Of a DNA stretch of 64,000 bases, positions 7,395 to 64,000 are shown piece after piece. Numbering within the stretch: the stretch's first letter is position 1; each line of letters starts with the position of its first letter. A model generated the notes under the pieces. That model did not search any database and was not told where the DNA came from. It was given only the letters and a program-made list of their open reading frames with translations. This DNA is from Felis catus (lineage: Eukaryota), in assembly GCF_018350175.1 (NCBI RefSeq), contig NC_058382.1:50160001-50224000 (forward strand). Reading direction: 5' to 3'. Both the position numbers and the translations under genes were made by a program.

Positions 7395-8160
7395 CAGCAT
7401 CACTGGTAATTACCTTTACCATTGCTCTTTATTTTTTCATACGGATTTGAGTTACTGTCTACTGTCCTTGGATTTCAGTTGGAAGAACTCCTTTAGTATT
7501 TCTTTAAAAAAATTTTTTTTAATGTTTATTTATTTTTGAAGGAGAGACAGAGCGTGAGCAGGGGAGGGGCAGAGAGAGAGGGAGACATAGAATCCAAATC
7601 AGGCTCCAGGGTCTGAGCTGTCAGCACAGAGCCTGATGCAGGGCTTGAACCCACGTACCGTCAGATCATGGCCTGAGCTGAAGTCGGATGCTCAACTGAC
7701 TGAGCCACTCAGGCGCCCCATCCTTTGGTATTTCTTACGGGACAGATCTGTTAGCAGTGAACTCTTTCGGTTTTGTTTATCAGGGAATACGTTTTATTTT
7801 ATAACACTGTCTAAGCTTTGCCGCTTGTTGGTGCATAGCCTCCAGGTTAATTAGAAGTGAGTACATAGGATAGTCTCAGGTCTTTTCTGAGCATGTGCAC
7901 AGTCCGAAACGTGCACATAGCTCTATGTATGTGCCTTTTAGATTGCTAGGAATATGTTATAGTTTTTCAACCCCTTCTGTGGACGTCTAATTCCTCACTT
8001 TTCCTTTTAAACTTAATGATTAGCCTATTGTTTGTTTGAACTGTTACCCACTACCTCAGGCGTGTATGTTGTTACACAATTGCCTCTAATTGTTCTTGAC
8101 AAATCTTTCCACTCCCAATACTTGATTTTAAAAAGTTTATTTGTACTGAGTGAATTTTGA
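7395..8160 (-). mobile_element. Ancient L1M fragment (ORF1/5' region); probably continues at about 10693-11090
   Basis: Antisense L1M-like motifs such as gaactcctttagtatttct...ctgttagcagtgaactctttcggttttgtttatcagggaat; downstream part gttctgaaatgttgattctgacc. Confidence 0.5.
7505..7719 (-). mobile_element. Can-SINE
   Basis: Full SINE structure; TSD tccttt(a/g)gtatttctt at 7489-7504 and 7721-7736. Confidence 0.95.
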
Positions 8161-8492: not shown

Positions 8493-10654
8493 TTTTCTTT
8501 TCTTTTTTTTTTTTTTTGAGAGGTTAGGGGAGGGGTGGAGGGAGAAGGAGAAAGAGAATCTTCTTTTTTTTTTTTAATATATGACACTTATTGTCAAATT
8601 GGTTTCCATACAACACCCAGTGCTCATCCCAAAAGATGCTCTCTTCAATACCCATCACCCACCCTCCCCTCCCTCCCACCCCCCATCAGCCCTCAGTTTG
8701 TTCTCAGTTTTTAAGAGTCTCTTATGCTTTGGCTCTCTCCCACTCTAACCTCTCTCTTTTTTTTTTTCCCTTTCCCTCCCCCATGGGTTCCTGTTAAGTT
8801 TCTCAGGATCCACATAAGAGTGAAAACATATGGTATCTGTCTTTCTCTGTATGGCTTATTTCACTTAGCATCACACTCCAGTTCCATCTACGTTGCTACA
8901 AATGGCCATATTTCATTCTTTTTCATTGCCACGTAGTACTCCATTGTGTATATAAACCACAATTTCTTTATCCATTCATCAGTTGATGGACATTTAGGCT
9001 CTTTCCATAATTTGGCTATTGTTGAGAGTGCTGCTATAAACATTGGGGTCCAAGTGCCCCTATGCATCAGTACTCCTGTATCCCTTGGGTAAATTCTTAG
9101 CAGTGCTACTGCTGGGTCATAGGGTAGGTCTATTTTTAATTTTTTGAGGAACCTCCACACTGTTTTCCAGAGTGGCTGCACCAGTTTGCATTCCCACCAA
9201 CAGTGCAAGAGGGTTCCCGTTTCTCCACATCCTCTCCAGCATCTATAGTCTCCTGATTTGTTCATTTTGGCCACTCTGACTGGCGTGAGGTGATATCTCA
9301 GTGTGGTTTTGGTTTGTATTTTTCCTGATAAAGAGCAATGTTGAGCATCTTTTCATGTGCCTGTTGGCCATCTGGATGTCTTCTTTAGAGAAATGTCTAT
9401 TCATGTTTTCTGCCCATTTCTTCACTGGATTATTTGTTTTTCGGGTGTGGAGTTTGGTGAGCTCTTTATAGATTTTGGATACTAGCCCTTTGTCTGATAT
9501 GTCATTTGCAAATATCTTTTCCCATTCCGTGGGTTGCCTTTTAGTTTTGTTGATTGTTTCCTTTGCAGTGCAGAAGCTTTTTATCTTCATGAGGTCCCAA
9601 TAGTTCATTTTTTGCTTTTAATTCCCTTGCCTTTGGGGATGTGTCAAGTAAGAAATTCTACAGCTGAGGTCAGAGAGGTGTTTTCTTGCTTTCTCCTCTA
9701 GGGTTTTGATGGTTTCCTGTCTCACATTCAGGTCCTTTATCCATTTTGAGTTTATTTTTGTGAATGGTGTGAGAAAGTGGTCTAGTTTCATCCTTCTGCA
9801 TGTTGCTGTCCAGTTATGCCAACACCATTTGTTAAAGAGACTGTCTTTTTTTCCATTGGATATACTTTCCTGCTTTGTCAAAGATTGGTTGGCCATACTT
9901 TTGTGGGTCTAGTTTTGGGGTTTCTATTCTATTCCATTGGTCTATGTGTCTTTTTGTGTCAATACCATGCTGTCTTGATGATTACAGGTTTGTAGTAGAG
10001 GCTAAATTCTGGGATTGTGATGCCGCCTCCTTTGGTCTTCTTCAAAATTACTTTGGCTATTCGGGGCCTTTTGTGGTTCCATATGAATTTTAGGATTGCT
10101 TGTTCTAGCTTCGAGAAGAATGCTGGTGCAATTTTGATTGGGACTGCATTGAATGTGTAGGTAGCTTTGGGTAGTACTGACATTTTGACAATATTTATTC
10201 TTCGAACCCGTGAGCATGGAATGTTTTTCCATTTCTTTATATCTTCAATTTCCTTCATAAGCTTTCTATAGTTTTCAGCATACAGATCTTTTACATCTTT
10301 GATAGATTTATTCCTAGGTATTTTATGCTTCTTGGTGCAATTGTCAATGGGATCAATTTCTTTATTTGTCTTTCTGTTGCTTCATTATTAGTGTGTAAGA
10401 ATGCAACTGATTTCTGTACATTGATTTTGTATCCTGCGACTTTGCTGAATTCACGTATCAGTTCTAGCAGACTTTTGGTGGAGTCTGTCGGATTTTCCAT
10501 GTGTAATATCATGTCATCTGCAAAAAGGAGAGAGAGAATCTTGAGCAGGTTCCACTCCCAACTTCAAGTCCAGGGCTCAATCTCAGGACTGTGAGATGAT
10601 GACCTGAGCTGAAGTCGAGTCGGATGCTTAATAGACTGAGCTCCCAGGCACCCC
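8493..10654 (-). mobile_element. Can-SINE split by an L1 (pieces 8493-8562 and 10525-10654)
   Basis: Poly-T and GA-rich part on the left; head ...gagatgatgacctgagctgaagtc...ctcccaggcacccc on the right. Confidence 0.85.
8563..10524 (-). mobile_element. 5'-truncated felid L1 (L1_Fc-type): ORF2 C-terminus plus 3'UTR
   Basis: ORF2 peptides ([41 protein letters not shown]), felid 3'UTR, poly-T; TSD aaggag(a)(a/g)agagaatctt at 8545-8562 and 10525-10542. Confidence 0.97.
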
Positions 10655-11327: not shown

Positions 11328-11404
11328 TTTACTTTGTCATTTTTATTAATATCACCTATTCATTACCTATTTGATTATTTTGACCAATAACAATATCAAA
11401 ACTG

Positions 11405-12818
11405 TGGCATAAAAACATACTCAGACCAGTGGAGCAGAATAGAGAACCCAGAAATGGACCCACAAACGTATGGCCAACTCATCTTTGACAAAGCAGGAAA
11501 GAATATCCAAAGGAAAAAAGACAGTCTCTTCAGCAAACGGTGTTGGGGAAAATTTCACAGTGACATGCAGAAAAAGGAACCTGGACCACTTTCTTACGCC
11601 ATACACAAAATAAAATGGGTGAAAGACCTCAGTGTAAGACAGGAAGCCATCAAAATCCTCGAGGAGAAAGCAAGCAAAACCCTCTTTGACCTTGGCCGCA
11701 GCAACTTCTTACTCAACACGTCTCTGGAGACAAGGGAAACAAAAGCAAAAATGAACTACTGGGACCCCATCAAAATAAAAAGCTTCTGCACAGCAAAGGA
11801 AACAATCAGCAAAACTAAAAGGCAACCGATGGGATGGGAGAAGATATTTGCAAATGCCATATCAGATAAAGGGTTAGTATCCAAAATCTATAAAGAACTT
11901 CTCAATCTCAACACCCAAAAAAACAAATAATCCAGTGAAGAAATGGGCAAAAGACACGAATAGACACTTATCCAAAGAAGACATCCAGATGGCCAACCGA
12001 CACATGAGAAGATGCTCAGCATCACTCATCATCAGGGAAATACAAATCAAAACCACAATGACATACCCCCTCCCACCTGTCAGAATGGCTTACATTAGCA
12101 ACTCAGGCAACAACAGACGTTGGCGAGGATGCGGACAAAGAGGATCTCTTTTGCATTGCTGGTGCAAATGCAAGCTGGTGCGGCCACTCTGGAAAACGCT
12201 ATGGAGGTTCCTCAAAAAATTAAAAATAGAACTACCCTACGACCCAGCAATTGCACTACCAGGCATTTATCCGAGGGATACAGGTGTGCTGTTTCGAAGG
12301 GACACATGCACCCCCATGTTTATAGCAGCATTATCAACAACAGCCAAAGTATGGAAAGAGCCCAAATGTCCATCGATGTATGAACGAATAAAGAAGATGT
12401 GGTATATATATATATATACAATGGAGTATTACTCGGCAATCAAAAAAGAATGAAATCTTGCCATTTGCAACAACGTGAATGGAACTGGAAGGTATTATGC
12501 TAAGTGAACTTAGTCAGATAAAGACAAATATCATATGACTTCACTCATATGCGGACTTTAAGAGACAAAACAGATGAACATAAGGGAAGGGAAACAAAAT
12601 AATTTAAAAACAGAGACGGGGCAAAACAGAAGAGACATATAAATATGGAGAACAAACTGAGGGTTGCTGGAGGGGTTGTGGGAGGGGTGTGGGCTAAATG
12701 GGTCAGGGGCACTAAGGAATCTACTCCTGATATCATTGTTGCACTCTATGCTAACTAATTTGGATGTAAATTTTTAAAAATAAAAAATAAAACAAGTTAA
12801 CAAAAAAATGAAAAGGAA
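11405..12818 (+). mobile_element. 5'-truncated L1 (copy A): ORF2 C-terminus, 3'UTR, A-rich tail
   Basis: ORFs 11454-11930 and 11935-12453 are L1 ORF2 (MDPQTYGQLIFDKAG..., [11 protein letters not shown]...). Confidence 0.97.
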
Positions 12819-13072
12819 AAGAAATGAGTCCTTTCAACACTAAAGCCAGTGATACAATGATTCTCCTTTCTCCTTTCCACTAGGAATCTTGAGGTCTCCC
12901 TACTTTGCTTCTTGTTTTCTTAATGATTCATCAAATTCTATTTCCTTAGTTTATCCACTCTTCTGTCTGTCCTCCTGTCATTTATATGACAGCTCTCTAC
13001 TCTCAGCCTTCTCTTATTCTCTTCCTTGTTCTCAATTCACCTATCCTGTATCTGCCTTTTCTTCTTTAAATT

Positions 13073-13282
13073 TCTTTTTTAACATTTATTTATTTTTGAG
13101 ACAGAGAGAGACAGAGCATGAACGGGGAGGGTCAGAGAGAGAGGGAGACACAGAATCTGAAACAGGCTCCAGGCTCTGAGCAGTCAGCACAGGGCCCGAT
13201 GCGGGGCTCGAACTCACATACCGCGAGATCGTGACCTGAGCCGAAGTCGGACGCTTAACCGACTGAGCCACCCAGGCGCCCC
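13073..13282 (-). mobile_element. Young Can-SINE
   Basis: CpGs retained; perfect 20-bp TSD tgccttttcttctttaaatt at 13053-13072 and 13284-13303. Confidence 0.97.
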
Positions 13283-14289
13283 GTGCCTTTTCTTCTTTAA
13301 ATTGGTTAAGCCAAGCCATAAAGTCCCAGACTCTGCCATCCATCTCCTGTTTGCTAGGATGCATGGACTCATTCACGCTATCACATACAAGTCACACCTA
13401 CCCTTCCTGTCCACCTCAAATTCACATGCTTAAGTTCAAGAATAGTGCATTCATGAAATAGAGTGCCTTCCATTTCATTATCATTCCCCAAACATCAACT
13501 CCCCCAAATCGACATAACATTACACACTTTTCCAAGGACAAAATTTGTAAGTATCTGTGAGTTTTTTTAACTCAGTTTAGCAGAGTATGCTCAATATGTC
13601 CTGTGAGGTATGGCATGTAAATGACAACATAACAACAGTTGTTACTGATTAGTATATCCTTTGTATTGATGATAGCTGCTTTGGACTGAATCCCTGTTAC
13701 ATGACACACACAGATTTATGCTGAAGCTAATACTCAGAGTAATCCTGGGAGGCCTTTGGTATCACTACAGATTAGGAAACACAGAGTAGGGCAAGCAAAC
13801 CATCTGCAGACCTGGGATTCCCACTCAGGGATGCCTGATGTTGCCATCAATGCCTTATTTACTAGGGCACCTACTATTAACACCATTTTAAAAAGTCAAT
13901 AGATTAGCCACACTTGATTTTAACCTGGTGGTTGTTGTTTTTATTAATTTGTTTGTTGATTGTTTTTAATACCAACAGCCACCATTAATACAGTATAAAG
14001 CTATCATGGACAAGTATTCAGTACAGAAGTTGTGGGGACTATGCATGTACTAAGGAATAAAAGATGGGCACAATTCCATTTACTCACCTGTAAGTAGTAC
14101 AGTTTTAATATTGTTTCCCCCCCCCCCATAAAAAAGCTTAAAATTTAATTAGGGAAACAAGACATAAACACATAAAATCAAAGCCATTTACAAAAGTAGA
14201 ATATAAGGCTTAGATTGCGGCAGCATTAATTACTCCGTACGCCCAGTGCCCGCTCTGCAGAATGTGAAAAGCTACCTGTGTTCCCTCTT

Positions 14290-14581
14290 TAAAACATTTG
14301 CTGAAGTCTAATATACGTACAGAAAAGGGCACATACTGCTCCAAGAATTTTCATAAACTGAACATACCCAGAAAATGAATACCCAGGTCAAAGAAAAGAA
14401 CATTACCAACATTCTGCAAGCTCCTCCTTTTGTTCCTTTTCAGTCATTTGTCTCCTTGGAGTGTAACCTTTATCCTGACACATAGCACCATAGATTGGTT
14501 CACCTGTTTTTATACTTTATATAAATGGAATCATGAAGTATGTATTCTGTTGTGTCTGGATTCTTTTGCTCAACATTATGT
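14290..14581 (-). mobile_element. Ancient L1ME/L1MC 3'-end fragment
   Basis: ...tttatataaatggaatcatgaagtatgtattctgttgtgtctggattcttttgctcaacattatg is typical antisense old-L1 3' end. Confidence 0.75.
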
Positions 14582-17477
14582 TCTTTTTTTTATTTTATTT
14601 TTTTAATTTAATTAAATTTTTTTTAATTAGCATATAGTGCAACAACGATTTCAGGAGTAGATTCCTTAATGCCCCTTACCCATTTAGCCCACACCCCTCC
14701 CACAACCCCTCCAGCAACCCTCTGTTTGTACTCCATATTTAAGAGTCTCTTTGTGCTTTGTCCCCCTCCCTGTTTTTATATTATTTTTGCTTCCCTTCCC
14801 TTGTGTTCGTCTGTTCTGTGTCTTCAAGTCCTCATGAGTGAAGTCATATGATATTTGTCTTTCTCTAACTCATTTCACTTAGCGTAATACCCTCTAGTTC
14901 CATCCACGTTGTTGTTGCAAATGGCAAGATTTCATTCTTTTTTGATTGCCGAGTAATACTCCATTGTGTATATATACCACATCTTCTTTATTCGTTCATA
15001 CATCGATGGACATTTGGGCTCTTTCCATTCTTTGGCTGTTGTTGATAATGCTGCTATAAACATGGGGGTGCATGTGTCCCTTCGAAACAGGACACCTGTA
15101 TCCCTCGGATAAATGCCTGGTAGTGCAATTGCTGGGTCGTAGGGTAGTTCTATTTTTAATTTTTTGAGGAACCTCCATAGCGTTTTCCAGAGTGGCCGCA
15201 CCAGCTTGCATTTGCACCAGCAATGCAAAAGAGATCCTCTTTGTCCGCATCCTCGCCAACGTCTGTTGTTGCCTGAGTTGCTAATGTAAGCCATTCTGAC
15301 AGGTGGGAGGGGGTATGTCATTGTGGTTTTGATTTGTATTTCCCTGATGATGAGTGATGCTGAGCATCTTCTCATGTGTCGGTTGGCCATCTGGATGTCT
15401 TCTTTGGATAAGTGTCTATTCGTGTCTTTTGCCCATTTCTTCACTGGATTATTTGTTTTTTTGGGTGTTGAGATTGAGAAGTTCTTTATAGATTTTGGAT
15501 ACTAACCCTTTATCTGATATGGCATTTGCAAATATCTTCTCCCATCCCATCGGTTGCCTTTTAGTTTTGCTGATTGTTTCCTTTGCTGTGCAGAAGCTTT
15601 TTATTTTGATGGGGTCCCAGTAGTTCATTTTTGCTTTTGTTTCCCTTGTCTCCAGAGACGTGTTGAGTAAGAAGTTGCTGCGGCCAAGGTCAAAGAGGGT
15701 TTTGCTTGCTTTCTCCTCGAGGATTTTGATGGCTTCCTGTCTTACACTGAGGTCTTTCACCCATTTTATTTTGTGTATGGCGTAAGAAAGTGGTCCAGGT
15801 TCCTTTTTCTGCATGTCACTGTGAAATTTTCCCCAACACCGTTTGCTGAAGAGACTGTCTTTTTTCCTTTGGATATTTCCTGCTTTGTCAAAGATGAGTT
15901 GGCCATACGTTTGTGGGTCCATTTCTGGGTTCTCTATTCTGTTCCATTGATCTGAGTGTTCTTGTGCCAGTACCATACTGTCATGATGATTACAGCTTTG
16001 TAGTGTAGCTTGAAGTCTGGGATTGTGATGCCTCCTGCTTTGGTTTTCTTTTTTAAGATTGCTTTGGGTATTTGGGGTCTTTCCTGGTTCCATACAAATT
16101 TTAGGATTATTTGTTCCAGCTCTGTGAAGAATGCTGGTGTTATTTTGATAGGGATTGCATTGAATATGTAGATTGCTTTGGGTAGTATCGACATTTTCAC
16201 AATATTTGTTCTTCCTATCCAGGAGCATGGAATCTTTTTCCATTTTTTTTGTGTCTTCTTAAATTTCTTTCATAAACTTTCTATAGTTTTCAGTGCATAG
16301 GTTTTTCACCTCTTTGGTTACTTATTCCTAGGTATTTTATGGTTTTTGGTGCAACTGTAAATGGGACCGATTCCTTGATTTCTCTTTTCTGTTGCTTCAT
16401 TGTTGGTGTATAGGAATGCAACTGATTTCTGTGTGTTGATTTTATATCCTGCAACTTTGCTGAATTCATGAATCAATTGCAGCAGTTTTTTGGTGGAATC
16501 ATTTTTCCATATAGAGTATCATGTCATCTGGGAAGAGTGAAAGTTTGACCTCCTCCTGGCCAATTTGGATGCCTTTTATTTCTTTGCGTTGTCTGATTGC
16601 AGAGGCTAAGACTTCCAATACTGTGTTGAATAGGAGTGGCCAGAGTGGATATCCTTGTCTTGTTCCTGACCTTAGGGGGAAAGCTGTCAGTTTTTCCCCA
16701 TTGAGGATGATATTAGTGTATTAGTGTTGGGTCTTTGGTATATGGCTTTTTTGATCTGGAGATATGATCCTTCTACCCCTACTTTCTTGAGGGTTTTTAT
16801 CAAGAAAGCATGCTGTATTTTGTCAAATGCTTTCTCTGCATCTATTGAGGGGATCATATGGTTCTTGTCCTTTCTTTTATTGATGTGATGAATCATGTTA
16901 ATTGTTTTCCGGATATTGAACCAGCCCTGAATCTCAGGTATAAATCCCACTTGGTCATGGTGAATTTTTTTTAATGTATTGTTGGATCCAGTTGGCTAAT
17001 ATCTTGTTGAGGATTTTTGTGTCCATGTTCATCAGGGAAATTGGTATAGTTCTCCTTTTTAGTGGGGCCTCTGTCTGGTTTTGGAATCAAGGTAATGCTG
17101 GCTTCATAGAAAGAGTTTGGAAGTTTTCATTGCATTTCTATTTTTTGGAATAGCTTCAAGAGAATAGGTGTTAACTCTTCCTTAAATGTTTGGTAGAATT
17201 CCCCTGGAAAACCATCTGGCCCTGGACTCTTGTTTTTTTGGGAGATGTTTGATTACTAATTCGATTTCCTTACTGGTTATGGGTCTGTTCAAATTTTCTT
17301 TTTCTTCCTGTTTTGGTTTGGTAGTGTATATGTTTCTAGGAATTTGTCTATTCCAGATTGCCCATTTTATTAGCATATAATTGCTCATAATATTCTCTTA
17401 TTATTGTTTTTATTCCTGCTGTGTTGGTTGTGATCTCTCTTTCATTCTTGATTTTATTTTTTTGGGTCCTTTCCTTT

Positions 17478-17479
<2 letters not shown>

Positions 17480-17510
<31 letters not shown>

Positions 17511-17764
17511 TTTTATTTTTTATTTTTATTTTTATTTTTTTTTTTTAATTTTTTTTTTCAACGTTTTTTACTTATTTTTGGGACAGAGAGAGACAGAGCA
17601 TGAATGGGGGAGGGGCAGAGAGAGAGGGAGACACAGAATTGGAAACAGGCTCCAGGCTCCGAGCCATCAGCCCAGAGCCCGATGCGGGGCTCGAACTCAC
17701 GGACTGCGAGATCGTGACCTGGCTGAAGTCGGACGCTTAACCGACTGCGCCACCCAGGCGCCCC
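17480..17764 (-). mobile_element. Young Can-SINE with very long T-rich tail, inside L1 B
   Basis: Near-consensus SINE; tccttttc/tcctttttc repeated on both flanks. Confidence 0.96.
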
Positions 17765-17930
17765 TCCTTTTTCTTTTTGATCACACTGGCTAGTGGTTTA
17801 TCAATTTTGTTAATTCTTTCAAAGAACCAGCTTCTGGTTTCATTGATCTGTTCTGTTTTTTTTTGGTTTCAATAGCATTAATTTCTGCTCTAATCTTTAT
17901 TATTTCCTGTCTTCTCCTGGTTTTGGGTTT

Positions 17931-18158
17931 TTTTAAAAAAAAATTTTTTTTCAACGTTTATTTATTTTTTTTGGGGACAGAGAGAGACAGAGCATGAACG
18001 GGGGAGGGGCAGAGAGAGAGGGAGACACAGAATCGGAAACAGGCTCCAGGTTCTGAGCCATCAGCCCAGAGCCTGACGCGGGGCTCGAACTCACGGACTG
18101 CGAGATCGTGACCTGGCTGAAGTCGGACGCTTAACCGACTGTGCCACCCAGGCGCCCC
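17931..18158 (-). mobile_element. Young Can-SINE inside L1 B
   Basis: TSD ctggttttgggtttt on both sides. Confidence 0.96.
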
Positions 18159-19845
18159 CTGGTTTTGGGTTTTATTTGCTGTTCTTTTTCCAGCTCTTTA
18201 AGGTGTAAAGTTAGGTTGTGTGTCTGAGATCTTTCTTCCTTTTTTAGGAAGGCCTGGATTGCTATATACTTTCCTCTTAAGACCACCTTTGCTGCATCCC
18301 AGAGGTTTTGGGTTGTGGTGTTATCATTTTCATTGACTTCCATATACTTTTTAATTTCCTCTTTCAATGCTTGGTTAGCCCATTCATTCTTTAGTACGAT
18401 GATCTTCAGTCTTCCAAGGATTTGTTACCTTTCCAAATATTTCTTTATGGTTGATTTCGAGTTTCATAGCGTTGTGTTCTGAAAATGTGCATGGTATGAT
18501 CTGGATCTTTTTGTACTTACTTAGGGCTGATTTGTGTCCCAGTATGTGATCTATTCTGGAGAACTTTCCATGTGCACTGGAGAAGAATGTATATTCTGCT
18601 TTAGGATGAAATATTCTGAATATATCTGTTAAGTCCATCTGGTCCAGTGTGTCATGTAAAGCCATTGTTTCCTTGTTGATTTTTTGATTAGATGATCTGT
18701 CCTTTGCTGTGTGTAGGGCGTTGAAGTCTCCTACTATTATGGTATTACTATCGATGATTTAGTTTATGTGTGTGATTAATTAATTTATATATTTGGTCCT
18801 CCCACATTTGGCGCATAAATGTTTACAGTTGTTAGGTCTTCTTGGTCTATAGACCCCTTGATTATGATACAATGCCCTTCTGCATCTCTTGATACAGTCT
18901 TTATTTTAAAGTCTAGATTGTCTGATGTAAGTATGGCTACTCCAGCTTTCTTTTGTTGACCATTAGCATGATAGATGGTTCTCCATCCCCTTATTTTCAA
19001 TCTGAACGTGTCTTTAGGTCTCAGGTGGGTCTCTTGTAAACAGCGTATAGATGGATCTTGTTTTCTGATCCATTCTGTTACCCTGTGTTGTTTGGAACAT
19101 TGAGTCCATTGACATTTAGAGTGAGTACTGAAAGATATGAATTTATTGCCATTATGTTGCTTGTAGAGTTGGAGTTTCTAGTGGTGTTTTCTGGTCCTTT
19201 CTAATCTTTGTTGCTTTTGGTATTTATTTATTTATTTACATATTTTATACACACACACACAAACACACACACATACATATATACATTTCATCTTTTCTCC
19301 TCTATGAGAGTCCCCCTTAAAATTTCTTGCAGGGCTGTTTTAGTGGTCACAAACTCCTTTAATTTTTGTCTGTCTGGGAAACTTTTTATCTCTCTTTCTA
19401 TTTTGAATGACAGCCTTGCTGGATAAAGAATTCTTGGCTGCATATTTTTCTGATTCAGCACACTGAATATATCCTGCCACTCCTTTCTGGCCTGCCAGGT
19501 TTCTGTGGCTAGGTCTGCTACAAACCTGATCTGTCTTCCCTTGTAGGTTAGGGATTTTTTTTTTCCCTTGCTGCTTTCATGATTGTCTCCTTGCCTGAGT
19601 ATTTTGTGAATTTGACTATGATACGCCTTGTTTAGGATCAGTTTTTGTTGAATCTAATGGGGGTCCTCTGTGCTTCCTGGATTTTGATGTCTGTGTCTTT
19701 CTCCAGGTTAAGAAAGTTTTCCGCTATGATTTGCTCACATAACCAACCCTTCTACCCCTATATCTCTCTCTTCCTCTTCTGGCACCCCTATGATTCTGAT
19801 GGTGTTCATTTTTAATGAAGGACTCTTATTTCTTGGCCCAATTTA

Positions 19846-20651
19846 TTTATTTTTATTTTTATTTTTTTTTAGAATTTTACATTTATTTGCTTTATTTTTA
19901 TTGTAGGATATTTATTTTTATTTATTTATTTAATTTTTATTTAATTTAATTTAATTTTTTCAATATATGAAATTTATTGTCAAATTGGTTTCCATACAAC
20001 ACCCAGTGCTCATCCCAAAAGGTGCCCTCCTCAATACCCATCACCCACCCTCCCCTCCCTCCCACCCCCCATCAACCCTCAGTTCTCAGTTTTTAAGTCT
20101 CTTATGCTTTGGCTCTCTCCCACTCTAACCTCCTTTTTTTTTTTTTTTCCTTCCCCTCCCCCATGGGTTTCTGTTAAGTTTCTCAGGATCCACGTAAGAG
20201 TGAAAACATATGGTATCTGTCTTTCTCTGTATGGCTTATTTCACTTAGCATCACATTCTCCAGTTCCGTCCATGTTGCTACAAAGGGCCATATTTCATTC
20301 TTTCTCATTGCCACGTAGTACTCCATTGTGTATATAAACCACAATTTCTTTATCCATTCATCAGTTGATGGACATTTAGGCTCTTTCCATAATTTGGCTA
20401 TTGTTGAGAGTGCTGCTATAAACATTGGGGTCCAAGTACCCCTATGCATCAGTACTCCTGTATCCCTTGGGTAAATTCCTAGCAATGCTACTGCTGGGTC
20501 ATAGGGTAGGTCTATTTTTAATTTTGTGAGGAACCTCCACACTGTTTTCCAGAGTGGCTGCACCAATTTGCATTCCCACCAACAGTGCAAGAGGGTTCCC
20601 ATTTCTCCACATCCTCTCCAGCATCTATAGTCTCCTGATTTGTTCATTTTG
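19846..20651 (-). mobile_element. 5'-truncated L1_Fc-type 3' end
   Basis: ORF2 end (...SEISHTEKDRYHMFSLL), 3'UTR, long AT-rich tail; TSD tcttggccca(a/c)ttta at 19831-19845 and 20652-20666. Confidence 0.96.
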
Positions 20652-22374
20652 TCTTGGCCCACTTTAAATTGAACTTTTTCTTTCCCTTTAGAGATAGTAG
20701 AGTAACCATAACAAAATGATTGTAAACATATGGTGTGTGTTAATGTGATCATTTGCTTCCTCATTATGGATTTAGTATGACCATTAACATCTAACTGCCT
20801 AATTTCCCAATAACCATTGAAAAATTAGAGCTGCATCATTGCCACCTATTATTCACCATAATAATTTCATTTCTGAAGGCATTTAATCTTTGTAAAATTA
20901 TGCACATCATTTGCCTTTTGTATTATTTTGACTTTTGGCCTATATTGACATGATTTACTTGTGTTTTATGTACCTGTATAAAATAAAAATTACACACTTA
21001 ACAGTCTTTTATAAAAAAGTAAATTATAGTTATATTTACTAATTTTTAGTTTTTTTTCTGTTATGTGATCAATGTTTATTTGCTCTTGGTATATCTATGT
21101 CCATATCAAAGCTTTAAAAAATACCTATATGTCTATGGTAAAATACTCATATCTTTCCATGCTTGGTTTAAATTTCTTCCATATATCTCCAAGAACAAAT
21201 GGTTCCTTTGTGCATTGTTATAATTCATTACTCAATGGGAGAAGATTCCTATGAAGGTGAAGACTTGGGTGCTTCTGGTTATAGAAGGAAATGTGATCTT
21301 TGGTGATTTTCACATTAGTGTACAAATGTTCACACTTGGATGCTTACATACAAGATCATCTATTGGTTCTCTCTGTCTCTCTCTCTGTCTCTCTCACACA
21401 CACACACACTCGTAGTCCATAAACTCACCCACACCCATGCTCAAATGCACACAGTCACATATGGTATTCACATGCTCTCGTATGCATATGTAGATATAGA
21501 TAGTTATTTAAAATGCGTTGTGAAAATTTTCTGTTTTATTTGGAACATGGAGAACTCTCATTTTTACAGTGTATTATTTTCACTAATATTAAGAGGTAAC
21601 CCTCTGAGATTTAGCTGCCTTTCATCTTGGATGTGAATAAACAGAACGATTTATGCATTTAATTTTGAAATATACTAAATGCTTCTATTAGATACCAACC
21701 CTTAATTTTTCCCTTTAGGTGTTTGATTAGTCTTAAAAGAATTTGGGACAAAAATGAATATATAAAGTTAATATTTTAATCTTTCTCTTAAAGACTTAGT
21801 CATTTACAAATTTCCAAAAGAGTTAATAGTCATCAATTAAATATATCTCCCATTAGGATTATAGCTAAATGCACAGTGATTCTACCTGATGCCTTTGTTG
21901 TTGCTGATTCTTCTTGTGTGGTAGGTTTTTATGTCATCAACTTTCACCCCACATTCTATCTAAACAAGTATATTGCATGTTCCAATCACATCCAGCCCAG
22001 GTCAACTGACCACAGCTGTGCAGGTTATCAATTAGACACCTGTATGTGGTGGCCATACCTGTGTGACCTTGTATAATCCCTTCATCTTCATTTCCAGTAG
22101 ACCAGGCCACAAATGTGTAGAAATAATATCCACTCTACCTTGGTTTCTTTGTTAAGAAGGAAGGGTCTGAGTAGGGCTAGCAAACCACAATGAGTAGTGC
22201 TGCGATGTTTTACCATGTTTTGCATCCAGGCAGCTGAAACTTGGGCCGAAGGAAAGAAACATAAAACATGTTTTCTTCATGAAAACAACCTATTCTGCAA
22301 ATCTGCATTTGGGTATTTTGGAACTTGAACTTTAAGTAACCCTAAATCAAATTTGTCAGTCTGCCTTTCCCTGA

Positions 22375-27583: not shown

Positions 27584-28527
27584 ATGAGTGGGGGAGGGGC
27601 AGAGAGAGAGGGAGACACAGAATGCCAAGCCGGCTCCAGGCTCCGAGCTGTCGGCACAGAGCCCGACAGGGGTCGAACTCACACACTGTGAGATCATGAC
27701 CTGAGCTGAAGTAGGAAGCTCAACCGGCTGAGCCACCCAGGCGCCCCTGTTTTGTATCTTAAATTCCACATGAGTGAGGTCATCAGATATTTGTCTTTCT
27801 CTGACTTACTTCACTTAGCATAATACCCTCTAGTTCCATCCACGTTTTTGCAAATGGGAAGATTTCATTCTTTTTGATCGCTGAGTAATACTCTGTTGTT
27901 TATATGTTATATACACCACATCTTCTTTATCCCTTCATCCATCAATGGACACGGGCTCTTTCCATAGTTTGGCTATTGTCGATAGTGCTGCTTTAAACAT
28001 TGGAGTGCATGTGTCCCTTTGAAACAGCTCACCTGTATACCTTGGATAAATACCTTGTAGTGCAATCGCTGGGTCATGGGGTAGTTCTCGTTTTAACTTT
28101 TTACACTTGATCTTAGCCAAAAGGCCGAGAAGCGGTATCTGTTTTTAACTTTTTGAGGAACCTCCATACTGTTTTCCAGAGTGGCTGCACCAGTTTGCAT
28201 TCCCACCAGCAGTGCAAAAGAGATCCTCTTTCTCTGCATCCTCGCCAACATCTGTTGTTGCCTGAGTTGTTAACGTTAGCCATTCTGACAGGTGTGAGGT
28301 GGTATCTCATTGTGGTTTTGATTTGTATTTCCATGATGATGAGTGATACTGAGTATTTTTTCATGTGACTGTTAGCCATCTGCATGTCTTTTTTGGAAAA
28401 GTGTCTATTCATGTCTTTGTCCCATTTCCTCACTGGATTATTTGCTTTTTTGGGGTTGAATTTGATAAGTTCTGTATAGATTTTGGATGCTAACCCTTTA
28501 TCTGATGTGTCATTTGCAAATATCTTC
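26981..28527 (-). mobile_element. 5'-truncated L1 containing two SINEs (26995-27181, 27492-27747) and a U2 retrocopy
   Basis: ORF2 C-terminal peptides (28113-28433), 3'UTR; TSD tctgagct(g/c)tatt at 26968-26980 and 28528-28540; inner SINE TSD ctgttttgtatctt. Confidence 0.93.
28102..28136 (-). pseudogene. RNU2 pseudogene: U2 snRNA 5' fragment (about nt 1-35) retrocopy
   Basis: Reverse complement reads accgcttctcggccttttggctaagatcaagtgta, one mismatch from the U2 5' end ATCGCTTCTCGGCCTTTTGGCTAAGATCAAGTGTA; flanked by duplicated L1 target sequence. Confidence 0.93.
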
Positions 28528-59639: not shown

Positions 59640-62600
59640 CACATCTTCTTTATCCATTCATCTATCCAGTCGATAGACATTTGGGCTCTTGCCATAATTT
59701 AGCTATTGCTGATAATGCTGCTATAAGTGCATGTGCCCCTTCAAATCAGCATTTTTGTGTTCTTTGGATAAATACCTAGTAGTGCAATTGCTGGGTCATA
59801 GGGTAGTTCTATTTTTATTTTTTTGAGGAACCTCCATAGTGTTCTCCAGAATGGCTGTACCAGTTTGCATTCCCACCAGCAGTGCAAAAGTGTTCCCCTT
59901 TCTTCACATCCTTGCCAACATCTGTTGTTTCCTGAGTTGTTAATTTTAGCCATTCTGACAGGTGTGAGATGGTATCTCATTGTAGTTTTGGTACGTATTT
60001 CCCTGATGCTGAGTGATATTGAGCATCTTTTCATGTGTCTCTTAGCTATCTGGATGTCTTCTTTGGAAAAGTGTCATGTCTTTTGCCTATTTCTTCACTG
60101 GATCACTTGTTTTTGGTGTTGAATTTGATAACTTATTTATAGATTTTGGATACTAATCCTTTATCTGATATGTCATTTGCAAATATCTTCTCCCATTCCG
60201 TTAGTTGCCTTTTGGTTTTAGTGATTGTTTCCTTTGCTGTGTAGAAGCTTTTTATATTGGTGAGGTCCCAGTAGCTCATTTTTGCTTTTGTTTGCCATGC
60301 TTCCTGAGATATGTCTAGTAAGAAGTTGCTGCAAATGAGGTCAAAGATGTTGTTGCCTGTTTTCTCCTCTAGGATTTTGATGGTTTCATGTCTTACATTT
60401 AGGTCTTTTATCCATTTTGAACTTACTTTTGTATATGGTATAAGAGGGTAGTCCAGGTTCATTCTTCTGCATGTTGCTGTCCAGTTTTCCCAGCACCATT
60501 TACTGAAGAGACTGTCTTTTTTCCATTGGATATTCTTTCCTGCTTTGTCAAAGATTAGTTGGCCATACATTTGTGGGTCCATTTCTGGGTTCTCTGTTCT
60601 GTTCCATTGATCTCTGTGTCTGTTTTTGTGCCAGTACCATCTGTCTTGATTATAGCTTCGTAATATAGCTTGATGTTTGGAATTGTGATGCCTCCAACAC
60701 TGGTTTTCCTTTTCAACAGTACTTTGGTATTTGGGGTCTTTTCTGGTACCATACAGATTTTAGCATTGTTTGTTCTAGCTCTGTGAAGAATGCTGGTATT
60801 ATTTTTATAAGGATTGCTTTGGGTGGTATAAATATTTTAACAATATTTGTTCTTCTGATCCATTAGCGTGGAATCTTATTCCATTTCTTCATGTTCTTCA
60901 ATTTCTTTCATAAGCTTTCTATAGGTTCCAGTGTACAGATCTTTTACCTCTTTGGTTAGGTTTATTCATAGGTACTTTACAGTTTTTGGTGCAATTGGAA
61001 ATGAGATCAATTCCTTGATTTCTCTTTCTGCTGATTCATTATTGGTATATAGAAATGCAACCAATTTCCGGGGTGTCTGGGTGCCTCAGTTGGTTAAATG
61101 TCTGACTTCAGCTCAGGTCATGATCTCATGGTTCATGGGTTCGAGCCCCATGTCGGACTCTGTGCAGACAGCTCAGAGCCTGGAGCCTACTTCAGATTCT
61201 GTGTCTCCCTCTCTCTGCCCCTTCTCCAGCTCATACTCTGTCTCTGTCACTCTCAAAAATAAATAAACATTAAAAAAAAAAAAAGAAATGCAACCAAGTT
61301 CTGTACATTGATTTTATATCCTGTGACTTTGCTGAATTCATGGATCAACTCTAGCAGTTTTTGGTGCAGTCTTTTGGGTTTTCCATGTAGAGTATCATGT
61401 CATCTGTGAAGAGTGAAAGTTTGACTTCTTCCTTGCTGATTTGGATGCTTTTTATTTCTTGTTGTCATCTGATTGCTGAGGCTAGGACTTCCATCACTAT
61501 GTTCAAGAAGAGCAGTGAGAGTGGACAGCACTGTTGTGTTCCTGACCTTAGGGGGAAAGCTCACTGTTTCTCTCCATTGAGGATGATCTTAGCAGTGAGT
61601 CTTTTGTATATGGCCTTTATGATGTTGAGATATTTTCCATCTATCCCTATTTTCTTGAGGGTTTTTTTTTTTTATCAAGAAAAGATGCTGTATTCTTTCA
61701 AATGCTTTTTCTGCATCTGTTGAAAGGATTGTGTGGCTCTTGTCCTTTCTTTTATTAATCTGATGTATCACATTGATTTGTGAATATTGAGCCACGCCTG
61801 TAGCCTAGGAATAAATCCCACTTGATCATGGTGAATAATTCTCTTAATGTACTGCTGGATTTAGTTAGCTAGTATCTTGCTGAGAATTTTTGCAACCATG
61901 TTCATCAGAGAAATTGGTCTGTAATTCTCCTTCTTAGTGGTCTTTGGGTTTGGAATCAAGGTAATGTTGAGTTCATAGAATGAGTTCAGAAGTTTTCTGT
62001 TCATTTCTATTTTTTGTAACAGCTTTAAAAGAATAGGTATTAACTCTTCTTTAAATGTTTGGTAGAATGCCTCTGGAAAGCCATCTGACCCTGGACTCCT
62101 GTTGTTTTTTTGTTTTGTTTTCGGGGAGAGGGGGGTGGCGAGATGTTTGATTACTGAATGAATTTCTTTGCTGGTTGTGGGTCTGTTCAAATATTCCGTT
62201 TCTTCCTGTTTCAGTTTTGGTAGTTTTTATGTTTCTAGGAATTTGTCCATTTCTTCTAGATTGTCCAATTTGTTGGCATATAAATTGCTGGTAATATTCT
62301 CTTATTGTTTGTATTTCTGCAGTGTTGGTTGTGATCTCTCACCTTTCATTTGTGATTTTATTTATTTGGCTTTCTCCTTTTGATCAGTAGGGCTAGGGGG
62401 TTATCAATTTTGTTAATTCTTTCAAAGAACCAGCTCCTGGTTTTGTTGATCCATTTCATTTTTTTTTAATTTTATTATTGATTTCTGCTCTAATCTTTGA
62501 GAATTTTTTAAAAATTTATTTATTTTTGAGAGAGAGTGAGAGTGTGAGTGAGCAGGGGAGTGGCAGAGAGGAGGGCAAGAGAATCCCAGTAGGGTCCACA

Positions 62601-63132
62601 CCATCAGTGCAGAGTCTGAGGCAGGGCTCAAGGTCACAAACTGTGAGGTCATGGCCTGAGCCAAAATCAAGAGTCAGACACTTAACTGACTGAGCCACCC
62701 AGGCACCCTGATTACTGCTCTAATCTTTATTCTTTCTTTTCTTTTGCTGTCTTGTGATTTATTTACTGTTCTTTTTACAGCTCCTTTAGATGTAACATTA
62801 GGTTGTGTATTTGAGACATTTCTTCCTTCTTTAGGAGAGTTTGTATTGCTTTATATTTCCCTCTTATGACCACTTGTGCTGCGTCCCTGAGGTTTTGTAC
62901 TGTCAGGTTTTTATTTTCATTGGCTTCCACGTACTTTTTAATTTCCTCTTTAATTTTTTGTTTAACCCATTCATTCTTTAGTAGGATGCTCTTTATCTCC
63001 AAGTATTTGTGTCTTTCCAATTTTTTTTTCTTGTGGTTAGATCAAGTTTCATAGTGTTGTGCTCTGAAAGTATGCATGATATGATCTCATTCCTTTTGTA
63101 CTTGTTGAGGGCTTATTTGTAACCCAGTATGT
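59640..63132 (-). mobile_element. L1 ORF2 (non-inverted part, 3' end lost), with SINEs at 61070-61283 (+) and 62500-62708 (-)
   Basis: ORF2 peptides ([46 protein letters not shown]); SINE TSDs agaaatgcaaccaa(t/g)ttc and tgatt(t/a)ctgctctaatcttt. Confidence 0.96.
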
Positions 63133-63985
63133 AGTAGCAGGATATATTCAATGTGATGAATCAGAAAAATATGCTGTGAATAATTCTCTATCCAGCAAGG
63201 TTTTAATTCAAAATAGAAGGAAAGATAAAGAGTTTCCAGAAAAACAAAAACTAAAGGAGTTTGTGACCACTAAACCAGCCCTATGAGAAATTTTAAGGGG
63301 CATTCTTTGAGTGGAGAAAAAAATAAAACAAGACCAAAAGCCCACAAAGACTAGAAAGGACCAGAGAACATCACCAGAAACACCAACTGTACAAACTATA
63401 CAATGGCACTAAATTCATATCTTTCAATTCTAAATGTAATTAGACTAAATGCTCCAGTCACAACACACTGGGTATCAGAATGGATAAAAGATCAAGACCT
63501 ATCTATATGCTGCCTGCAAGAGACTCATTTTAGTCCTAAAGACACCTGCAGATTGAAAGTTAGGGACTGGAGAACTGTCTATCATGCTAATGGACATCAT
63601 ACTTATATCAGACAAACTAGATATTAAAACAAGACTGTAAGAAGAGATGAAGAAGGACATTATATCATAATTAAAGGATCTTTCCTCCCAGAACATCTAA
63701 CAATTATAAACATTGATGCCCCCAACTTGAAAGCACCAAAATATATACATCAATTAATAACAAATAAAAAGAAACTCATTGATAATAATACCATAATAGT
63801 AGAGGACTTTAACTCCCCAGTTACAGCAATGGACAAATCATCTAAGCAGGAAATCAATAAGGAAACAATAGCTTTGAATGGCACATGGACCAGATGGAAT
63901 TAACACATATATTTAGAACATTTTATCCTAAAGCATATACATTCTTCTCAAGTGTACATGGAAAATTTTCTGGAGTAGATAACAT
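63133..63985 (+). mobile_element. Inverted 5' part of the same L1 (ORF1 end plus ORF2 endonuclease)
   Basis: ORF 63403-63627 MALNSYLSILNVIRLNAP...ICCLQETHF is the L1 EN N-terminus; ends exactly where the - segment begins in L1 coordinates. Confidence 0.93.
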
Positions 63986-64000
63986 TTTAAATTTTAATAC

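Follow-up and report, generated by a model that had tools for sequence, protein, structure and literature searches.

We found that two dead copies of the long interspersed element LINE-1 (L1), lying in opposite orientation in a 64,000-nucleotide stretch of the Felis catus genome (assembly GCF_018350175.1, contig NC_058382.1, positions 50,160,001 to 50,224,000; hereafter the window, numbered from its first letter), are almost identical over about 1 kb inside a longer homology in which they differ at about one position in nine. The best reading of this pattern, to which we give a probability of roughly 0.55, would be ectopic gene conversion between the two inverted elements, copy A on the plus strand and copy B on the minus strand, together with a probable inversion of the spacer between them. 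Four observations lead us to this reading, namely, the tract itself, its sharp inner edge, mutations that the two arms share with each other, and one candidate target-site duplication that connects the end of one copy with the opposite end of the other; conversion as the cause of the tract and a crossover between the copies are what we infer from them.

The pattern in the sequence is real. When the window was compared with itself, the top pair was A 11405 to 12795 against B 15969 to 14585 (94.9% identity over 1,398 columns), which is the sole long inverted pair above 85% identity in the window. Global alignment places the homogenized tract at A 11435 to 12467 (plus) and B 14918 to 15941 (minus), where 1021 of 1024 aligned columns are identical and where a perfect core of 786 nucleotides (nt) pairs A 11502 to 12287 with B 15092 to 15877. 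An initial annotation, made from the sequence alone, had reported the near identity of A and B over about 1 kb and had listed the differences by eye, and both hold: the alignment shows two substitutions (A 12288 and 12350), a 3-nt gap (A 11499 to 11501), and a change in the length of a (TA)n repeat (A 12403 to 12417, comprising a 6-nt gap and a single T/C column). The inner edge of the tract coincides with a second 3-nt indel, at 12467. The inner (3′) homology that adjoins the tract is identical in only 248 of 279 columns, and this step from 99.7% to 89% identity inside continuous homology supports conversion. A perfect run of 786 nt has a probability per start position of 6e−41 at the inner rate and of 7e−11 even at the rate averaged over the entire overlap; hence, uniform divergence cannot yield it, and identity along the overlap is not uniform. 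The proposal of the initial annotation that two old, independent insertions were later homogenized by gene conversion is supported by the identity step and by the private lesions described below.

Other parts of that description need to be qualified. The strong difference outside the tract is borne out on the inner side, whereas the outer edge is weakly tested, with the L1 homology of A stopping about 30 to 45 nt beyond it and 23 of 28 columns of this stub identical to B. The proposed palindrome with a spacer of about 2.4 kb does have 2.45 kb between its arms; however, about 0.7 kb of this consists of the two diverged L1 3′ ends and only 1.75 kb is unrelated sequence, and the term palindrome is a loose one, as the structure shows no sign of the long-term upkeep known from sex-chromosome palindromes. 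In single alignments, B is colinear with two other L1 copies of the window, with copy C through both edges of the tract and with copy D through the outer edge, as is expected of a homology-directed patch. The remaining differences between the arms can be polarized by the other copies in the window; three are derived in B and one, the microsatellite, in A, a split that does not fix the donor arm. They sit near the ends of the tract, which may indicate more than one round of conversion, a post hoc and weak observation. If rates were equal, the last homogenization would be about 40 times younger than the insertions (3/1,024 versus 31/279 differences).

The locus is made up of the following parts, in which ORF1 and ORF2 denote the two L1 open reading frames, UTR the untranslated region, and SINE a short interspersed element.

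11392 to 11434, plus strand: outer stub of copy A, a nonhomogenized start inside ORF2, 5′-truncated; 23 of 28 columns match B.
11435 to 12467, plus strand: arm A, homogenized tract; last third of ORF2 according to its ORF2 relatives, broken by the shared frameshifts.
11502 to 12287, plus strand: perfect core of 786 nt, with its partner at B 15092 to 15877.
12468 to 12818, plus strand: inner 3′ end of A, with the ORF2 end, 3′ UTR, and degenerate A-rich tail; 89% identical to the 3′ end of B and probably the 3′ end that the long element had originally.
12819 to 12833, plus strand: candidate target-site duplication after the tail of A, 15 nt.
12834 to 14584, no strand: spacer of about 1.75 kb without L1 homology to the arms, holding one SINE (about 13064 to 13285) with its own 20-nt duplication.
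14585 to 14917, minus strand: inner 3′ end of B, with the tail, 3′ UTR, and ORF2 end; nonhomogenized.
14918 to 15941, minus strand: arm B, homogenized tract, placed by alignment to arm A.
15942 to 19818, minus strand: outer part of B, with the ORF2 endonuclease and middle, the inter-ORF region, and the 3′ half of ORF1; broken, and holding two younger SINEs (about 17475 to 17765 and 17928 to 18158).
19818 to 19834, minus strand: candidate target-site duplication at the 5′ junction of B, 17 nt; 15 of 15 columns match 12819 to 12833, with a 2-nt gap.
19842 to 20651, minus strand: younger L1 copy E, inserted at the 5′ junction of B with its own duplication.

Both arms are dead, 5′-truncated LINE-1 sequence, in which homology to ORF1, the endonuclease, and the ORF2 C terminus follows the order of an L1. 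Copy A is a 1.4-kb 3′ fragment with a 5′ junction somewhere from about 11392 to 11404; copy B is truncated inside ORF1, where the homology begins at about 19818. Pfam identified ORF1 (PF17490) and the endonuclease (PF03372) in B and gave no match for the two tract frames. The ORF1 relatives that carry a name and rank near the top come from lion, dog, and lynx, and the closest relatives at the junction motif of B include lion and lynx. Nothing in the A/B locus reached the gathering level in Rfam, and the predicted fold of the left half of the spacer, SINE included, is uninformative (z of −2.3 on 20 shuffles). The locus has no evident function, and the spacer yielded no identified gene. Copy E (in the region 19831 to 20662) has a duplication that shares a few bases with the candidate duplication of the long element.

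The lesions common to both arms comprise an extra G and a 7-nt deletion, which bound a peptide read in a shifted frame, an extra A in an A run, which gives the TQKNK-stop sequence, and a further extra A near 12445. The initial annotation had named the frameshifted stretch, the deletion, and the stop after TQKNK as shared, and all three are present, although the stop arises from a +1 frameshift in the A run and not from a point change. Copies C and D have neither the extra G nor the 7-nt deletion, and copies C, E, F, and G do not have the extra A near 12445. Against the privacy of the TQKNK lesion, the A run is slippery, and copy G has a run of equal length. These five other L1 copies of the window are 79 to 89% identical to the tract. 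A protein search with the first tract frame gave 6,497 relatives; among the best 120 of these, the top one shows 74% identity over 95% of the query, and the highest identity is 81%, over 70% of the query. The peptides that span the frameshift junctions (6 residues at the entry and 7 at the exit) occur in none of the 232 ORF2 relatives checked, and a 4-residue piece of the exit peptide occurs in 4 of them. Pentamers from inside the shifted stretch are found in 19 of the 232, as would be expected of other copies read in the shifted frame. Hence, as the initial annotation had supposed, the shared mutations appear to be private to the pair of arms among the relatives sampled, and they are not subfamily-wide in this sample; this privacy is that of sampled relatives and window copies, not of a genome-wide DNA count. 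A search for DNA copies of the subfamily gave no match in the viral contigs and none in the genome contigs searched. A single match in a metagenome contig was rejected as a 22-nt chance match with no further similarity. The tract carries changes at 14 of 110 conserved codons (13%), and outer B carries them at 39 of 351. The tract is therefore as decayed as the rest of B and is no young insertion.

The evidence for an inversion is a candidate crossed target-site duplication, which is new relative to the initial annotation and suggests that A and B are recombinant chimeras around an inverted spacer. Both copies have A-rich tails, and for neither was a duplication of its own found; instead, the 17 nt outside the ORF1 homology of B match the 15 nt that follow the tail of A. 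The score of this match, 23, was reached by 19 of 20,000 random 51-nt segments and by 19 of 4,938 A-rich ones, and the pairings within each element score only 6 to 13. The same scoring gave 21 to 40 for six of eight control insertions set by hand; the other two, whose junctions were poorly placed, scored 10 and 14. Duplications that do not match within an element are a published test for retrotransposon-mediated inversions (PMC2603318). Provided that the tract is real, the crossed duplication makes it quite probable that both copies are chimeras and that the spacer has been inverted.

Several points weigh against this reading. A second crossed duplication, between the 5′ flank of A and the tail flank of B, was not found (scores of 10 to 15, best 15), and four pairings were tried, which brings the chance rate in A-rich sequence nearer to 1.5%. 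The match requires a 2-nt gap, and the cut site that it implies deviates from the canonical TTTT/AA. In addition, the candidate duplication overlies ORF1-like codons (R-E-I-S-D, two of five residues alike) and may be partly L1 derived. No old repeat crossing either junction was found that would fix the orientation, since six stretches of flanking sequence gave no usable match. The inversion could also be an error of assembly orientation at the near-identical arms.

One alternative, proposed by the initial annotation, is conversion without a crossover, in which the tract is real, the spacer has kept its ancestral orientation, and the crossed duplication arose by chance. All of the evidence from the tract applies to this alternative as well, and it is favored by the recovery of one of the two crossed duplications only, at a place that overlies ORF1-like codons. 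We nevertheless regard it as unlikely because it demands that both own-element duplications were lost and that a chance match occurred exactly at two junctions.

In the reading that we favor, conversion with a crossover, two L1 elements of one old subfamily, probably felid, would have inserted separately, 1.75 kb apart and in opposite orientation, and would have accumulated about 11% divergence through decay. Long afterward, one copy would have suffered a break and been repaired on its inverted neighbor, on the same chromatid or on the sister. We hypothesize that this repair overwrote about 1 kb, including the frameshifts, and extended nearly to the end of the outer shared sequence. A crossover between the copies, at that time or later, would then have exchanged the 3′ ends and turned the spacer around, so that the 5′ part of the long element (outer B) and its 3′ end (inner A) now lie on opposite arms. 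These steps of repair and crossover are postulated on the basis of established recombination biology.

An assembly or polishing artifact, in which the sequence of one arm was overwritten onto the other, is improbable. Mispolishing over 1 kb would be unexpected at 11% divergence with both loci present, and the arms retain four differences that the other copies polarize sensibly. A fold-back read is ruled out by the divergence of the inner ends and by a spacer that lacks self-complementarity. Of 130 words sampled across 1.26 kb of the spacer, 98 to 99% are present in at least 20 of the 24 runs listed. Altogether 7 studies contributed these runs, and 6 rows, belonging to 2 of the studies, carry no flag as a possible source. 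The spacer therefore exists, a result that says nothing on the arms. We had considered the CpG excess of the tract as proof against an artifact and dropped this argument after the subfamily panel described next, which largely explains the excess by the CpG content of the subfamily.

The same excess might suggest a mini-palindrome that has persisted for a long time under recurrent GC-biased conversion, as in the palindromes of primate sex chromosomes, and the clustering of the arm differences at the tract ends would fit such a history as well. At 19.4 CpG per kb, the tract ranks first among 10 L1 slices; its 1024 nt hold 20 CpG, whereas outer B has 15 in 3,326 nt (P = 2e−5). The excess persists in a control that uses the same columns of copies C and D (P = 0.015) but is not upheld against the closest copy, F (P = 0.09). 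Four CpGs of the tract stand in place of conserved tryptophan, cysteine, or glutamine codons; new CpGs at conserved codons number 4 in 926 versus 3 in 2,198 (P = 0.21). To these comparisons we added a subfamily panel of 69 copies (69 of 119 new proteins passed the same-subfamily filter, the proteins being ranked by likeness to the query), which covers only the 5′ half of the tract and yields small counts. Five of nine hypermutable CpG columns are kept in this half of the tract, with two more ambiguous, and the CpG column in which retention can be read directly is kept by about 28 of 67 panel copies. Hence, the region is CpG rich in the subfamily, and the decay of the tract is about normal.

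Changes from weak to strong bases (W>S) and the reverse (S>W) likewise argue against the mini-palindrome. They occur in a ratio of 10:6 in the 5′ half of the tract and of 250:205 in the panel (P = 0.62). At the DNA level, the ratio is 9:4 versus 46:47 (P = 0.24), or 5:4 versus 43:42 outside CpG, and at conserved codons it is 7:1 in the tract, compared with 21:8 in outer B (P = 0.65) and 40:44 in the other copies (P = 0.059). The only nominal signal is a lower frequency of S>W changes in the tract (1 of 110 codons) than in the other copies (44 of 762; P = 0.03), a deficit that is not seen against outer B (P = 0.69). GC-biased conversion was therefore rejected as a finding, with no significant non-CpG bias in five tests, one of which is an earlier version of the conserved-codon test with poorer coverage; a weak GC bias of the tract is compatible with these small counts. 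We consider the mini-palindrome quite improbable. Outer B itself (15942 to 19300, minus strand) leans toward W>S at conserved ORF2 codons, 21:8 versus 40:44 in the other copies, which may reflect only a subfamily difference from the panel.

The weakest alternative, that no exchange took place and that the arms arose as two young copies from a single source element or as products of one insertion or template-switch duplication, has nothing besides the high identity in its favor and is already contradicted by the frameshifts and the 13% load of changes at conserved codons in the tract, by 3′ ends that differ by 11% and have dissimilar tails and flanks, and by the lack of a near-identical relative among the best 120 of the 6,497 proteins.

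Related cases have been described in primates and in other transposons. In inversions formed by recombination between retrotransposons, two L1s in opposite orientation are turned into chimeras, and the duplications beside each one cease to match (PMC2603318). A and B resemble these cases in that inverted L1s flank a segment; one of the two crossed pairs of duplications was found at A/B, and neither of the two own-element pairs. However, the published inversions involve mostly young L1PA copies, with the ancestral state fixed by an orthologue and PCR, whereas the single crossed duplication is the sole evidence of inversion at the A/B locus, where the copies are about 89% alike. Inverted L1 pairs flank 22 balanced inversions in human haplotypes, with a median of 5.6 kb and frequent truncation of the L1s, and 21 of the 22 pairs are more than 90% identical (bioRxiv 10.1101/2021.12.20.472354). 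The A/B overlap has 94.9% identity overall; unlike in the human pairs, its high identity is confined to a patch in 89% homology, and no polymorphism is shown. Among individual human inversions, HsInv0209 has inverted repeats with a mean identity of 94% and a 782-bp patch at 99.9% that was taken as the likely breakpoint, and HsInv0341, which has been validated, has L1PA3 copies on its two sides (PMC3961182). The repeats of HsInv0209 are segmental duplications of 7 kb and did not arise as separate L1 insertions, and both inversions are genotyped polymorphisms, unlike A/B.

Dispersed copies of transposons are known to be homogenized patchwise by nonallelic gene conversion, at rates that are raised within 10 kb, as a review reports for Alu (PMC6598467, PMC8230782). 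The published data concern Alu and long terminal repeat elements, whereas A/B has a 1-kb tract in dead L1s. The palindromes of the primate X chromosome have arms with more than 99% identity and a median of 37 kb, are conserved across species, and show a clear GC bias (PMC8981503); A and B share with them the inverted arms of more than 99% identity, but these arms are 1 kb long and no bias is shown. The published cases of inversion and conversion cover every element seen at A/B. No felid case of such conversion or inversion was found by title in the literature searched, which left out most subscription papers.

The window contains further features of its L1 copies and repeats. Inside copy F, at 28076 to 28136 (minus strand), about 35 nt of the 5′ end of U2 small nuclear RNA are inserted between 12- to 13-nt duplications; the match to Rfam RF00004 (E-value of 8.2e−07, 40.6 bits) lies below the gathering score of 46, and the insert looks like a truncated U2 retrocopy. 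Copy D (59640 to 64000) switches strand near 63124 to 63132, with ORF1-end and endonuclease sequence beyond this point on the plus strand, as in a twin-priming 5′ inversion; the copy runs off the end of the window. Copy C (8520 to 10545) is apparently inserted in SINE-like sequence and is flanked by an 18-nt duplication (17 of 18 alike). Copies C and E, a direct pair with 95% identity over 703 nt, were considered as a second converted pair and rejected; their flanks differ, and they are better explained as two copies of a younger subfamily. A weak Rfam match to transfer RNA (33 bits) at 7630 to 7714 (minus strand) lies inside a SINE-like repeat and is probably the tRNA-derived head of a SINE.

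On its own, the locus matters little, as it is dead L1 sequence. What it offers is a conversion and a probable inversion that can be read from one sequence, between copies that are less than 90% alike outside the tract, below the identity of 21 of the 22 human L1 pairs that flank inversions. The spacer is a small candidate inversion polymorphism of a kind that short reads would miss, and near-identical neighbors such as A and B mislead the dating of L1 insertions. If tracts of this kind were artifacts, they would point to a systematic fault in the assembly. It is conceivable, though doubtful at present, that adjacent dead L1s about 11% diverged were converted often in this lineage, that the resulting kilobase-long tracts make near-perfect inverted repeats, and that the spacers between them flip repeatedly and are polymorphic. 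If this were true, the high identity of the L1 pairs that flank inversions would be partly a result of recombination and not only its precondition.

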